A stretch of 64,000 bases of DNA from Escherichia coli (lineage in GTDB: Bacteria > Pseudomonadota > Gammaproteobacteria > Enterobacterales > Enterobacteriaceae). The position numbers and the translations under genes are program-made. Positions within the stretch are counted from its first letter, which is position 1, and every line of letters begins with the position of its first letter. The notes under the pieces are model-generated. The model did no database searches. It saw nothing but the letters and a program-made list of their open reading frames with translations, and was not told the DNA's origin. The stretch lies in assembly GCF_044647545.1 (NCBI RefSeq), contig NZ_CP172818.1. One strand, written 5' to 3'. Shown piece by piece: positions 39,916 to 44,508 of the stretch.

Positions 39916-40901
39916 GCCAGCTTCCAGGGTTGTCACGGGAAACAAGAGAGAGTATCGCTATGTATCACCTTCGGGTTCCACAAACAGAAGAAGAATTAGA
40001 GCGTTACTATCAGTTTCGCTGGGAAATGTTGCGTAAGCCCCTGCATCAACCGAAAGGTTCGGAACGCGACGCGTGGGATGCGATGGCGCATCACCAGATG
40101 GTCGTCGACGAGCAGGGTAATCTGGTGGCGGTAGGCCGACTGTATATTAATGCCGACAATGAAGCGTCCATTCGCTTTATGGCCGTTCATCCCGACGTGC
40201 AGGACAAAGGGTTAGGAACGCTGATGGCGATGACCCTCGAATCTGTGGCGCGTCAGGAAGGTGTTAAGCGCGTGACCTGTAGCGCCCGCGAAGACGCGGT
40301 GGAGTTTTTCGCCAAGCTGGGGTTTGTTAATCAGGGAGAAATCACCACGCCAACCACCACGCCGATTCGCCATTTTTTGATGATTAAACCCGTTGCCACT
40401 CTGGATGATATTTTGCATCGCGGCGACTGGTGCGCGCAGCTGCAACAGGCGTGGTATGAACACATCCCGCTGAGTGAAAAAATGGGCGTGCGCATTCAGC
40501 AATATACCGGGCAAAAATTTATCACCACCATGCCGGAAACAGGCAATCAGAATCCGCATCACACGCTGTTTGCCGGGAGTTTATTCTCGCTGGCAACGCT
40601 CACCGGTTGGGGGCTTATCTGGCTGATGCTGCGCGAACGCCACCTCGGCGGAACGATTATTCTGGCGGATGCGCATATCCGCTATAGCAAGCCGATTAGC
40701 GGCAAACCTCATGCGGTAGCCGACCTTGGTGCCTTAAGCGGCGATCTCGACCGTCTGGCGCGTGGACGAAAAGCACGGGTGCAGATGCAAGTAGAAATCT
40801 TTGGCGACGAGACGCCGGGTGCAGTGTTTGAAGGCACGTATATCGTTCTGCCCGCGAAGCCATTTGGCCCGTATGAAGAGGGCGGGAACGAAGAAGAGTA
40901 G
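39912..40901 (+). CDS. yiiD: GNAT acetyltransferase / thioesterase fusion protein YiiD (FabY)
   Basis: 329 aa ORF with GNAT region ([15 protein letters not shown]) followed by hotdog-like C-terminal domain. Confidence 0.85.
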
Positions 40902-40904
40902 CGT

Positions 40905-41729
40905 TGGCAGGTGCATTGCACTCCTTGCCCCTGTCATGCGGTGATACAACGCTTCACCTTCATCGCAAAGTGGGTCGTATTCAGCGGTAATGATATGTAC
41001 AGGTGGCAAGCCATTGAAATCATCGCGCCAAAGAGGGCTGGCTTCAGGATGCCTGCGTTCAATGCCTGGCAGGTACATCTCAAAGCCGCTCAGTAAAGTG
41101 TCGCGTGTGATGATGTAATCGTGACGATTGCGTATGTAGCTTTCGAAATGCGCAGTCGCATCAAGCATGGGATAAATTAAGATGACCGAGTTGTGCCGGT
41201 TGCCACTCGCCAGCACGCTTTAATCGCAAAGCAGTTACCAGCGCCAGATGTCCGCCCGCACTGTCACCGGCAAGAGTTATCCGTTGTTTATCAACGCCGA
41301 GTCGTTCGGCGTGTTGCCGACTGAATTCTGCACCTCGTTGCGCATCATCATGGGCGGCGGGGAAAGTATGTCCGGTGCCAGCCGATACTGGACGGCAATA
41401 ACCCGACATTGCCCGTAATAGGCTAACTGGCGCAGCTGGTTGTCGTGAGTTGCGAACCCGCCGCTAACAAAACAGCCACCGTAGTAATAAATTATCGTCG
41501 GGAGTAATGTCGGGGCATTCAGCGGTGACACTATTCGTAAGGTCATCGCTTCAAGTTCGATAGTCTGAATATCTACCCGCGTTTCTGTCTCACCCGCAAG
41601 GACAGCGCTGGCGATATAGCCCTCCCTGCGCTGCGCAATACTTTGTTGACGCGATGAGGGGCGACCCGCAGCGATAAACTCTTCGACTAACTCTGCAATT
41701 CCTTTTTCAGTGCCATAGTAGAACTCATT
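40905..41729 (-). pseudogene. Decayed alpha/beta-hydrolase (hormone-sensitive-lipase family esterase, Aes-like) gene remnant
   Basis: Minus-strand fragments in three or more frames: ..IIYYYGGCFVSGGFATHD.. (oxyanion-hole region), ..ITLAGDSAGGHLALVTALRLK.. (GDSAG nucleophile elbow), ..HIITAEYDPLCDEGEALYHRMTGA.. (acid-residue region); no single frame covers the gene and the 3' end runs into yiiD. Confidence 0.6.
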
Positions 41730-41945
41730 TTGCTGTATGAATGTACAGTTTTATACACCCGTTTTTACTGGATGGATACAGGGAAATTCACGGGCGTGAA
41801 AAATCTGGAAAGCGCCTCGCAAATGTAAAGACAAACCCGGCAGAGATGTGGTTTTGCTGGAGCACTATCAGTAAGCTAGTGGTTTCAAGGGTACGTCAAT
41901 GACGTACAGAAGGGGTTTATTTATCTAAGCCAATGGCGTATAATT

Positions 41946-42256
41946 ATGCTCTTCATCGAAACGGAAATTTTTACTGAAGATGTTCAAAAACTGCTGACCG
42001 ACGATGAATTCAGTCGTTTTCAGTTTTTCCTGGCCTTGAATCCTGACTATGGTGAGGTAATACCTGAAACTGGTGGGTTAAGAAAGGTTCGATGGGTGTC
42101 AGGAGGAAGGGGAAACGTGCTGGTGTCAGGGTTATTTACTTTCATCAGGTTAAACATTATGAGATCAGATTACTGCTTATTTATCGTAAGGGTATTAAAG
42201 ATAATATCTCTCCCCAGGAAAAAGCAATGCTCCGGTTGTTAAATACGAGGTGGTAA
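41946..42256 (+). pseudogene. RelE/ParE-superfamily (HigB-like) toxin with an internal frameshift
   Basis: Frame 1 gives MLFIETEIFTEDVQKLLTDDEFSRFQFFLALNPDYGEVIPETGGLRKVRWVSGGRG..; the +1 frame continues ..GKRAGVRVIYF..EIRLLLIYRKGIKDNISPQEKAMLRLLNTRW and stops at TAA directly abutting the antitoxin ATG. Confidence 0.6.
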
Positions 42257-42547
42257 ATGGATAAGGCACTTTTTGAGCGGTTGACTCACAGCATGGCCCA
42301 GATGAATGAAATTATTGAAGGAACGCGACAGCCTTCGCGGACTTTTGAAGTTGATGCTATGAAAATCAAAGAAATACGCCGCGCTTCAGGGTTGTCACAA
42401 TCTAAATTTGCCGATCTTATTTCTGTAAGCGTAGACACGTTGCGTAACTGGGAGCAGGGGCGACGTTCGCCGACCGGGCCTGCAAAGGCTTTGCTGCGAG
42501 CGATTGCCAATGATCCGCAACATGTGCTGCAAGCACTTAACCGTTAG
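42257..42547 (+). CDS. HTH (XRE-family) HigA-like antitoxin
   Basis: 96 aa ORF with HTH region IRRASGLSQSKFADLISVSVDTLRNWEQGRRSP; translationally coupled (TAAATG) to the upstream toxin frame. Confidence 0.7.
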   Translation: MDKALFERLTHSMAQMNEIIEGTRQPSRTFEVDAMKIKEIRRASGLSQSKFADLISVSVDTLRNWEQGRRSPTGPAKALLRAIANDPQHVLQALNR

Positions 42548-43150
42548 AGGCATGGTTATGCCATACAGAAAGCACCAGCATTCAGAACTCCTGTGAAAGC
42601 GGCGTAGTGCCACCTGCTCAGGAGTTTTGCTATGACCCGTAATCAGTGCTGACCGTTGCCACCCTATGATGCGATTAAAAAAACTCATCGTCGCGCCGAT
42701 GATTGACGTCAATGCTATCGGATGATACCGGGGGTGTTCCAGAAAGATCCAACTTTCCCGAACTGTTACCAACAAAATTATAACGATGAGCAAGTTAAGA
42801 CCGGTTGGTAGCAGTACTGACCGGTCTGTGATGGATGATTAATTTCACCTTAAATCCGGGTGCTGTTAGGATGCTGACATTTTTCGGCTACACCATTCAG
42901 ATTATGCAAATAAAGATCCAATCAAAAAATAAACATCCCTGTATATAATATATTTATAGCACCCATATCTCATCCTGGGCGATAACCCAACCATTTTTGA
43001 TTAACAAATGAAACAACTGCAACGTTCTTATTATTTCTGGAAAACGTCTCGCAAAAACAAAACAGCATGCAAAAATCCGCTTTTTTTAAATGATTTTTCG
43101 GCGTAATTTTCGCACATACATTAATGAGTAATATATGTAAGGTATTGGTA

Positions 43151-43369
43151 ATGGCGATGAATACGGTTTTTCTTCATTTATCAGAAGAGGCAATTAAACG
43201 GCTGAACAAGCTTAGGGGCTGGCGTAAGGTTTCACGATCTGCAATTTTACGCGAAGCGGTTGAGCAATATCTGGAGCGGCAGCAATTTCCGGTGCGTAAA
43301 GCAAAGGGTGGCAGGCAAAGGGGGGAGACAGTAGTTGTTGATGATCAGTGTAAGGAGCATAAGGAATGA
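43151..43369 (+). CDS. yiiE: Ribbon-helix-helix (CopG-like) small regulator YiiE
   Basis: 72 aa from MAMNTVFLHLSEEAIKRLNKLRGWRKVSRSAILREAVEQYLERQ inside ORF 43124..43369. Confidence 0.75.
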   Translation: MAMNTVFLHLSEEAIKRLNKLRGWRKVSRSAILREAVEQYLERQQFPVRKAKGGRQRGETVVVDDQCKEHKE

Positions 43370-43578
43370 CAAAAAATTTATTATTCTTGAATATAAAAAC
43401 CAGATGCCCTTATTCTGGTATTAATACAAGGCTGTTTTACTTGAACTTATAATAACTGCAACTGTTACATCATATCTGGAAAACGCCTCGCGAAATACGA
43501 GAGTTTGGAATAGCAGGTGTCGTCATACCCTATGAACTGTAATCCGGGCGACCAGCGCCACCCGGAAAACGTCAGAGA

Positions 43579-44508
43579 TTACTCCCCTTCACCCGGAAAC
43601 AGGAACGGGTTGATGGAACTACGGGCATAGCCTTCTTGCTCCATTCGCGCGTCCAGTACCAGAGAGGCGAGGTCATCTGCCACGGCTTCAACTTTCGGTT
43701 CTTTTTCCTGATAAAGAATCTTCAGGTAAGTGCCGCAGTCATCGCAGCTTTCGGCTTTAATCGCGGCCTGTTCGTCATCCAGCGACCAGTAATGCAGTTT
43801 GCCGCTTTGTTCACAGTTGCTGCATTTTACGCGTACTACGTGCCATTCAGTTTCACACAGGTTGCAGTGCAGGTAACGCAGCCCCTGAGTGGTGCCAATT
43901 TGCACCATGCTGGACACCGGCATAGAACCACAAACCGGGCAATATTGACGTTGTTCGCCATATTCCGCACGCGCTTTGCCGGGGATCAGATTGGCCATCT
44001 GCGCCCAGTAGAGCGACAGTGCAGCCCAGATAAACGGCGCTTTATCGCTGCTGACGGACGAGAAATCAGAGGCAAACAGTGCGCTGGCCATATCTTCCAG
44101 CTCCTGAGTCGATGCCTTCTCCAGATTCTCAATCACTGCCAGCGCCGGGCCGCTCATTTCAGGTTTCAGCTCAGCAATCAGCGCCATCAGCAGCTTTTGC
44201 CAGTGCTTATCACGCGGCAGAACGTGAATATCCAGCGGGGGCTTGCCTTGTGCGCTGGCTTCTTTAATGCGCGTGGTCAGATCCATCTCCAGCGGATGGT
44301 CGTACAGCACCACTTCCTGGGCGTGGGCGATAAGCGCAGCAAAGCGCAGGTAATCACCCAGCGGATTATTTTCTGCCAGCTCGCGCAGACGCTCGGCGCG
44401 GCGGTTGTATAAATTCTTGAGCCGAGGGAACAATAACGGCGGAATCATATCCGCCGTACGTTTCTCGCTCGAACCCAGCTCATCTTGCGGGATTATGCGA
44501 ATACTCAT
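43579..44508 (-). CDS. fdhE: Formate dehydrogenase accessory protein FdhE
   Basis: 309 aa ORF with CxxC pairs ([23 protein letters not shown]). Confidence 0.93.

Follow-up and report, generated by a model that had tools for sequence, protein, structure and literature searches.

Probable CRP-S sites beside toxin–antitoxin-type genes in the fabY–fdhE islet of Escherichia coli

The interval between fabY (yiiD) and fdhE of Escherichia coli is a strain-variable islet, and in the 64,000-nucleotide stretch of contig NZ_CP172818.1 analysed here (the window) it carries three copies of a 21-bp motif. Judging from the sequence, each copy is probably a CRP-S site (we put the probability at roughly 0.7), that is, an asymmetric 22-bp variant of the CRP site with a C6 half, TTTTGCGA, and a weaker TTCCA half, placed ahead of toxin–antitoxin (TA)-type genes. 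The 21-mer pattern TCTGGAAARCGYCTCGCRAAA matched three times in the window, always on the plus strand, with starts at 41804, 43036 and 43475, compared with a mean of 0.02 matches in shuffled sequences, none of which gave three; no further match was found elsewhere in the 64 kb at up to three mismatches. These results confirm the three same-orientation copies that a sequence-only reading of this DNA had noticed, and the positions it gave relative to the genes also held: copy 1 lies 121 nt upstream of the ATG of a toxin gene (41946), copy 2 lies 94 nt upstream of the yiiE ATG (43151), and copy 3 lies downstream of yiiE. The candidate sites are as follows.

41803 to 41824, plus strand: CRP-S-type site, copy 1 (22-mer aTCTGGAAAGCGCCTCGCAAAT; 21-mer TCTGGAAAGCGCCTCGCAAAT at 41804-41824), with the exact TGCGA-N6-TTCCA core on the other strand
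43035 to 43056, plus strand: CRP-S-type site, copy 2 (21-mer TCTGGAAAACGTCTCGCAAAA at 43036-43056), with the exact core, kept in K-12 and CFS3313
43474 to 43495, plus strand: CRP-S-type site, copy 3 (21-mer TCTGGAAAACGCCTCGCGAAA at 43475-43495), with the strong half degraded to CGCGA (T4 to C)

Two different half-sites, T4G5C6G7A8-N6-T15T16C17C18A19, make up the E. coli CRP-S motif, which is non-palindromic and orientation-independent and differs functionally in that cAMP-CRP activates transcription from it only jointly with Sxy (TfoX), a co-activator of competence (PMC6728893). Its enterobacterial half-sites carry C6 or G6, and never T6 (PMC1635313). The reverse complement of the window motif reads TTTTGCGA-GGCGTT-TTCCAGA, or TTTTGCGA-N6-TTCCAGA in general form. 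On the minus strand, copy 1, which is located between a divergent esterase gene and a higB-like/nadS pair, reads TGCGA-GGCGCT-TTCCA, and copy 2, whose centre is 105 nt upstream of the yiiE ATG, reads TGCGA-GACGTT-TTCCA. The exact core thus occurs twice against 0.26 matches expected, and copy 3 departs from it by one change (CGCGA). A canonical CRP (CRP-N) site, TGTGA-N6-TCACA, does not describe the motif, the halves of which are TGGAA and TCGCA, with G6/G17 and no T6.

The motif was compared with characterised sites. The CRP-S site of K-12 sxy (tfoX) (Jaskolska & Gerdes 2015; Sondberg et al. 2019, PMC6728893), TTCGGAAAGAGCCTCGCAAAT, is identical to copy 1 at 18 of 21 positions, and the resemblance extends to the asymmetric halves with the TGCGA half toward the gene, to a site centre about 100-135 nt from the start codon, and to a LexA box in the same divergent intergenic region (with sulA in K-12 and the esterase gene here). 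The sxy site differs in its weak half, which is TTCCG instead of the consensus TTCCA found here, and in belonging to a core regulator whose autoregulation was tested by mutagenesis, whereas the present copies lie in a strain-variable islet and are known from their sequence. At the K-12 ppdD pilin promoter (Cameron & Redfield 2006, PMC1635313), AACGCCTCGCAAAT is common to the ppdD site and copies 2 and 3, and the right half is identical. CRP binds the ppdD site in vitro, weakly but specifically, and activation is strictly Sxy-dependent, with a 90-fold induction by Sxy (PMC1635313). Unlike the islet genes, ppdD is a core-genome competence-machinery gene, and the weak half of its site is TTCGT-like, not TTCCA.

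A weight matrix was built from the accessory-locus copies alone and then run on the upstream regions of the K-12 Sxy regulon. It scored 22.4 at sxy, 14.0 at ppdA and 11.7 at ppdD, compared with a maximum of 2.3 over 308 control 200-nt chunks of the window. In the upstream regions of hicA and K-12 higB the TTCTGGAA half is present and the partner halves differ. Site centre and start codon are 103-132 nt apart for the copies studied here; the corresponding distance at sxy, ppdD and ppdA is 112-135 nt. The site was found in both orientations relative to the adjacent operons, which is consistent with the orientation-independence of CRP-S (PMC6728893).

The esterase–vapB/yiiF spacer was aligned from seven genera, plus Klebsiella and a second Citrobacter. 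Both half-sites were invariant across 8 genera, several spacer positions varied (A/G, G/A, C/T/G), and the flanks could not be aligned; that the halves are fixed and the spacer is free amid unalignable flanks argues for selection. The motif is also intact where the downstream antitoxin gene is a remnant, namely in Atlantibacter, one C. freundii and Phytobacter, and its survival beside a decayed yiiF fits an additional role of copy 1 at the divergent promoter of the esterase gene.

In a scan of about 100,000 genomes, one per species, about 30 matches were obtained in the Enterobacteriaceae, nearly all of them intergenic and at several unrelated loci. Intergenic matches with a conserved context were confined to this family; those outside it had no common flanking sequence, and about three were E. 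coli yiiE/yiiF DNA in records of other taxa (L008, L039 and L042). The other cassettes found beside the 21-mer comprise relB/parE (between cybC and nrdG), a TA pair of a Gp49 toxin and a helix-turn-helix (HTH) antitoxin, a phosphotransferase system (PTS) gene, c4-antisense-RNA modules, yhcG and rhuM. The relB/parE cassette, 700 bp with its own terminator hairpin and a CRP-S-like site, replaces a 30-nt cybC–nrdG hairpin in 443 of 5425 E. coli genomes (L027 4612-5320, compared with L065/L066). The occurrence of the same 21-mer beside such unrelated cassettes rules out an operator specific to YiiE at this locus. The idea of a shared operator put forward in the sequence-only reading therefore stands in part: the motif looks like a shared, functional regulatory site ahead of separate small transcription units, but not like the operator of a YiiE-type ribbon-helix-helix (RHH) regulator. 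As for the prospect, raised there as an objection, of many copies at unrelated loci, E. coli genomes hold no more than five motif places each (counted with a concatenated two-copy query, and so an upper bound only), but the copies do occupy unrelated loci, presumably because the site belongs to a regulon.

Copy 3 stands apart in the window. In K-12 and CFS3313 it is located 92 nt upstream of yiiF, a paralogue of yiiE, and relative to these strains the window lacks 591 bp from the last bases of copy 3 onward; ATACGAGAG is offset from the motif by 611 nt in these two strains and by 20 nt in the window. The junction is the following.

43492 to 43496, no strand: junction of the 591-bp deletion, CTCGC joined to GAAATACGAGAG, with CGC microhomology

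Lost with this segment are yiiF, its proximal promoter region and downstream repeats resembling repetitive extragenic palindromic (REP) elements, which make up a repeat-rich spacer before fdhE. yiiF is present in 4735 of 5426 complete E. coli genomes and absent from about 680, including Nissle 1917. At the same position, Klebsiella, Citrobacter, Superficieibacter, Enterobacter and Franconibacter have a yiiF-like vapB followed by a vapC encoding a PIN-domain protein, which identifies yiiF as an ancestral, orphaned VapB antitoxin gene; the ancestral layout, still found in Klebsiella and Citrobacter, is esterase, CRP-S, vapB(yiiF)-vapC, fdhE. The hint that the third copy marks a deleted neighbouring paralogue was therefore right, and copy 3 is orphaned because its gene was deleted. 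With the gene and the downstream promoter gone and a T-to-C change in the strong half, copy 3 is most likely non-functional in the window. The 28-codon open reading frame (ORF) that had been placed after copy 3 actually lies ahead of it (43366-43452); it is a 37-codon GTG ORF (43517-43630), overlapping the 3' end of the opposite-strand fdhE, that follows.

Copies 2 and 3 arose with the duplication that produced yiiE and yiiF. They have in common a 45-nt stretch of 78% identity that includes the 9-mer AACTGCAAC, whereas copy 1 has only the 21-mer in common with them. On the plus strand of the window the 9-mer occurs at two places only.

43015 to 43023, plus strand: AACTGCAAC before copy 2, within the 45-nt unit duplicated between yiiE and yiiF
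43454 to 43462, plus strand: AACTGCAAC before copy 3, ending 12 nt ahead of the motif, as at copy 2

The 9-mer had already been noticed ahead of these two copies, at a supposed distance of 15-20 bp; its position holds, but the gap is 12 nt. It includes TGCAAC, the reverse of GTTGCA, and GTTGCA is the sequence recognised by the PutA ribbon-helix-helix domain. AACTGCAAC could be a contact for YiiE/YiiF or merely duplicated sequence.

We propose how CRP–Sxy binding might act at these promoters. When cAMP is high and Sxy has accumulated, CRP–Sxy would occupy the site and, from an upstream position of class I type, would recruit RNA polymerase to a distal promoter that escapes autorepression by the antitoxin, a two-promoter design proposed by analogy with hicAB and toxTA. 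The proximal palindromes, e.g. GTACGTCAATGACGTAC at 41891-41907, would be the antitoxin operators. Copy 1 may serve the higB-like/nadS pair, the divergent esterase promoter with its SOS box, or both; copy 2 may serve yiiE, and copy 3 would formerly have served yiiF. Two elements bear on this layout.

41891 to 41907, no strand: palindrome GTACGTCAATGACGTAC, candidate antitoxin operator at the proximal promoter, near the toxin start
41733 to 41748, no strand: LexA-box-like palindrome CTGTATGAATGTACAG, covering the predicted esterase transcription start

A separate palindrome, read by eye, is present near the start codon in each of the higB-like/nadS, relB/parE and Gp49/HTH operons, and these palindromes fit a design with a distal site and a proximal operator. 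Class I positions are at about -62, -72, -83 or -93 from the transcription start. With starts predicted by eye, the site centres would fall at about -71 for the esterase gene, -60 for c4 and -84 for yiiE and yiiF. The predicted -35 and -10 elements of yiiE and yiiF (TCCGGC/TTCGGC and TACATT/TAGATT) are conserved, 61-67 nt after the motif, and the value for copy 1 assumes the predicted extended -10 of the esterase gene, TGTATAAA, on the minus strand at 41750-41757. The LexA-box-like palindrome is found at the same place in Klebsiella, Citrobacter, Superficieibacter, Enterobacter, Franconibacter, Atlantibacter and Phytobacter; given its conservation over the predicted start, the esterase gene may be an SOS gene.

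Both models for this design are TA operons, and Sxy-driven CRP-S promoters have been described for each (PMC6957337; review PMC11951105). Sxy also induces higBA, chpSB and hokD (PMC6957337, PMC11951105). In K-12 hicAB (Turnbull & Gerdes 2017, as described in PMC6957337), the distal CRP-S/Sxy promoter P1 is unrepressed by the antitoxin and is combined with a proximal, antitoxin-repressed promoter adjoining the start codon. The present loci resemble hicAB in being TA operons with a TTCTGGAA half-site, and palindromes and spacing suggest a similar pair of promoters; they differ in that the other hicA half-site lacks TGCGA and in the families of toxin and antitoxin. The H. influenzae toxTA operon (HI0660/HI0659; PMC6957337), in which loss of ToxA blocks transformation, is toxin-first and combines a toxin of Gp49/ParE-RelE type with an HTH antitoxin. 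The same build is seen in the Gp49/HTH pair that follows the motif in L015 and in the higB-like/nadS pair of the window, whereas in the Pasteurellaceae the CRP-S site is palindromic (TGCGA-N6-TCGCA) and the one studied here has the asymmetric enterobacterial form.

Several points weigh against CRP-S identity or against the promoter layout drawn from it. The left half-site, TGGAA, lacks G7, a normal CRP contact. The matrix found no site at the other Sxy-regulated promoters hofM, comEA and dprA, the matrix being over-specific because the copies were gathered with a strict pattern. The class I spacings rest on predicted transcription starts, and with such a start the centre at relB/parE is at about -47, which fits no class I position. 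Copies at unrelated loci are nearly identical, which could in part be due to mobile cassettes descending from a common source and not to selection on each copy.

The genes of the islet are arranged in the order esterase (minus strand), copy 1, higB-like toxin gene and nadS, copy 2, yiiE, copy 3 and fdhE (minus strand).

40808 to 41716, minus strand: alpha/beta-hydrolase (esterase) gene, divergent from copy 1
41946 to 42256, plus strand: higB/RelE-like toxin gene, with a weak RelE Pfam match
42257 to 42547, plus strand: nadS, gene of an HTH (XRE-type) antitoxin
43151 to 43369, plus strand: yiiE, encoding a ribbon-helix-helix (CopG) protein of 72 aa that is paralogous to the VapB-like YiiF
43579 to 44508, minus strand: fdhE, the conserved right-hand border of the islet

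Esterase gene, TA pair and yiiE occur together in 2041 of the 5426 complete E. coli genomes; the K-12 interval has neither the esterase gene nor the TA pair, and that of O157 holds other genes. Relative to the intact copies of other strains, four or more indels shift the frame of the esterase gene in the window, and the loss of 1 nt from an A-run near 42107 does so in the higB-like gene. Several of these indels are changes in homopolymer length, so real pseudogenes and assembly errors are both possible. In strain 500111, which is closest to the window, an IS1 lies about 26 nt downstream of copy 2 and splits the site from yiiE (L003 2993-3690). One other strain has a degenerate copy 2, TTTGGATGCCGTCTCGCAAAA (L064 3585-3605), whose left flank is similar to the copy 3 flank and which has two additional small ORFs upstream; it looks like another cassette joined within the motif. 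No Rfam family was found in 41500-43700 at E<=1. A tRNA-linked integration site was rejected, since neither the window nor ten loci contain a tRNA gene. A weak peak for RpoS in the yiiD–yiiE spacer, from SELEX (systematic evolution of ligands by exponential enrichment) in the literature, has no bearing on the motif.

The suggestion that the motif marks islet boundaries was borne out, in that it tracks the borders of both islet and cassettes, and in two strains the borders meet within it. MJ-T has a hybrid motif with the left flank of copy 1 and the right flank of copy 3, which leaves esterase gene, motif and yiiF, without higB/nadS and yiiE; in FHI_NMBU_03, copy 1 is joined to copy 2 and higB/nadS is absent. 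Of 5426 genomes, 1 has the exact MJ-T junction and 6 have one of the FHI type. The hybrids show that cassettes have come or gone precisely at the motif. Since the copies are direct repeats of 21 bp, recombination from one to another would delete or swap whole cassettes, and we read the turnover as occasional recombination of this kind together with selection that retains the site, and not as the work of a dedicated recombination system.

The hybrids could also mean that the motif serves first of all for recombination or as a cassette boundary, being a core for insertion and excision of TA cassettes with regulation secondary, and each of the deletions that removed yiiF (in the window, Atlantibacter, C. 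freundii and Phytobacter) begins at the 3' edge of the motif, while the variable region between clpA and infA begins about 8 nt past it. Selection on a regulatory site, however, accounts for deletions that stop beside the motif, and the rarity of the hybrids fits occasional recombination between short direct repeats. The arms do not form inverted repeats, nor is a recombinase gene linked to the motif. At cybC–nrdG the empty site is motif-free, the motif being located within the 700-bp insert, about 130 nt from the edge, and the sequence is that of CRP-S sites in the core genome, for instance at sxy and ppdD. We consider a primary role in recombination unlikely, and an att-like core was rejected on the grounds of its arms, the motif-free empty site and the rare junctions. 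We think it similarly doubtful that the motif is the site of some other Enterobacteriaceae factor, or a functionless relic hitch-hiking with mobile cassettes. The copies are very similar, as common descent predicts, there is no Rfam match, and no paper was found with the sequence; against this, fixed halves and a free spacer across genera with unalignable flanks argue for selection, and the exact fit to a characterised CRP-S site makes another factor unnecessary.

It appears quite improbable that YiiE and YiiF, as RHH proteins, have their operator in the motif and bind as tandem RHH dimers to the direct half-repeats TCTGGAAA and CTCGCAAA, 11-12 bp apart. The half-repeat spacing is about one helical turn, and the motif does precede yiiE, yiiF and the yiiF-vapC pairs of Superficieibacter, Enterobacter, Franconibacter, Citrobacter and Klebsiella, but it also adjoins cassettes with HTH-type regulators or none, as well as the PTS gene, and is kept where yiiF is a remnant. 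It lies about 100 nt from the start codon and not over the proximal promoter, another conserved element, ATGATAT, adjoins the yiiF ribosome-binding site, and the motif is essentially identical to the K-12 sxy and ppdD sites. We give hardly any credence to a sigma-54 (-24/-12) promoter of the form CTGG-N10-CGCA. The GG/GC spacing would fit, TCGC occurs in glnAp2, and the variable positions fall within the sigma-54 spacer; however, with a weight matrix from 50 sites confirmed by chromatin immunoprecipitation (ChIP) (minimum 7.9 bits, median 16.1), the copies score 1.1-5.3 bits, below the minimum of real sites, and 202-310 positions in the window equal the better copies (cut-offs of 5 and 4 bits). 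Published ChIP-seq has no sigma-54 site at yiiE, yiiF or yhcG, the only one being intragenic in fdoI, and the orientation is wrong for several adjacent operons.

The same matrix gave two other scores in the window. A sigma-54-like 17-mer, TCGGCGTAATTTTCGCA, between copy 2 and yiiE (43098-43114, plus strand) scored 10.4 bits and has no published ChIP peak; CTGGCGCGCATTCTGCA, inside fdoI at about 44971 on the minus strand, scored 16.8 bits and is the published intragenic sigma-54 site IS47. Further candidates were rejected. In an informal comparison, none of marbox, Ada box, PhoP, CpxR, PurR/LacI-type, Fis or IHF sites fitted. A dispersed repeat, of REP type or of the enterobacterial repetitive intergenic consensus (ERIC) type, does not agree with at most five places per E. 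coli genome and the lack of any Rfam or repeat-family match. Phage origin was dismissed on three viral-contig matches only, one of them in an enterobacterial-type context beside, and not inside, the end of a P2-like prophage and two that look like chance, and plasmid origin was dismissed since the 'plasmid' matches are mislabelled chromosome pieces. The motif is not a coding relic, as the frames FWKxxRK, SGKRLA and LESASQ are inconsistent among copies and the motif-spanning ORFs in L004 and L061 are spurious.

In Enterobacter, Lelliottia and the chromosomes of Enterobacteriaceae RIT691 and RIT714, a C4 antisense RNA (RF01695, of the P1/P7 immunity type) was detected above the gathering threshold about 150 nt from a CRP-S-like motif.

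L007 863-949; L015 5250-5333; L021 6127-6214; L053 1783-1867; L056 7359-7444: C4 antisense RNA, Rfam matches

Each of these matches is followed by an ORF of about 150 aa without a Pfam family, and the motif is inverted in one type of locus and direct in the other. In the clpA–infA region of Lelliottia, a CRISPR array (Rfam CRISPR-DR4, about 19 repeats) adjoins the c4 module (L021 6881-7987).

Sxy control of TA operons (hicAB, higBA, chpSB) and the CRP-S sites themselves are already established. What appears to be new is the assignment of this locus to the CRP-S family, the orphaned site, and the recurrence of near-identical sites with mobile cassettes in many genera. No paper was found linking Sxy with yiiE, yiiF or yhcG, in a search that did not cover the primary Sxy microarray study (2009), whose lists may already contain them. 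Both yiiE and yiiF are y-genes without known function or inducing condition, and a putative near-consensus CRP-S site ahead of each offers a cheap, testable lead. The assignment would place the fabY–fdhE islet, including the esterase gene with its SOS box and the ancestral vapBC pair, in the competence/starvation regulon, and short identical regulatory sites as breakpoints for cassette loss would explain the local genome dynamics.

In other genera the site lies beside many unrelated cassettes of TA or defence type, and Sxy may therefore control addiction modules more widely, and with more variation among strains, than the K-12 regulon shows. The cassettes seen with it are type II TA pairs belonging to at least four families, genes of orphan antitoxins, of the PDDEXK protein YhcG and of RhuM, and the c4-antisense-RNA modules. 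One could tentatively envisage, as a possibility that we hold to be less than even, that CRP-S sites are a portable regulatory tag of cassettes exchanged horizontally among the Enterobacteriaceae, through which Sxy commands a strain-specific accessory regulon. If this is true, the repeated sites would also provide homology for the shuffling of cassettes in hot spots such as fabY–fdhE, the orphan antitoxins YiiE and YiiF could act as Sxy-induced anti-addiction factors, and a large accessory regulon made up of addiction and defence genes would come under Sxy command when cells prepare for DNA uptake.

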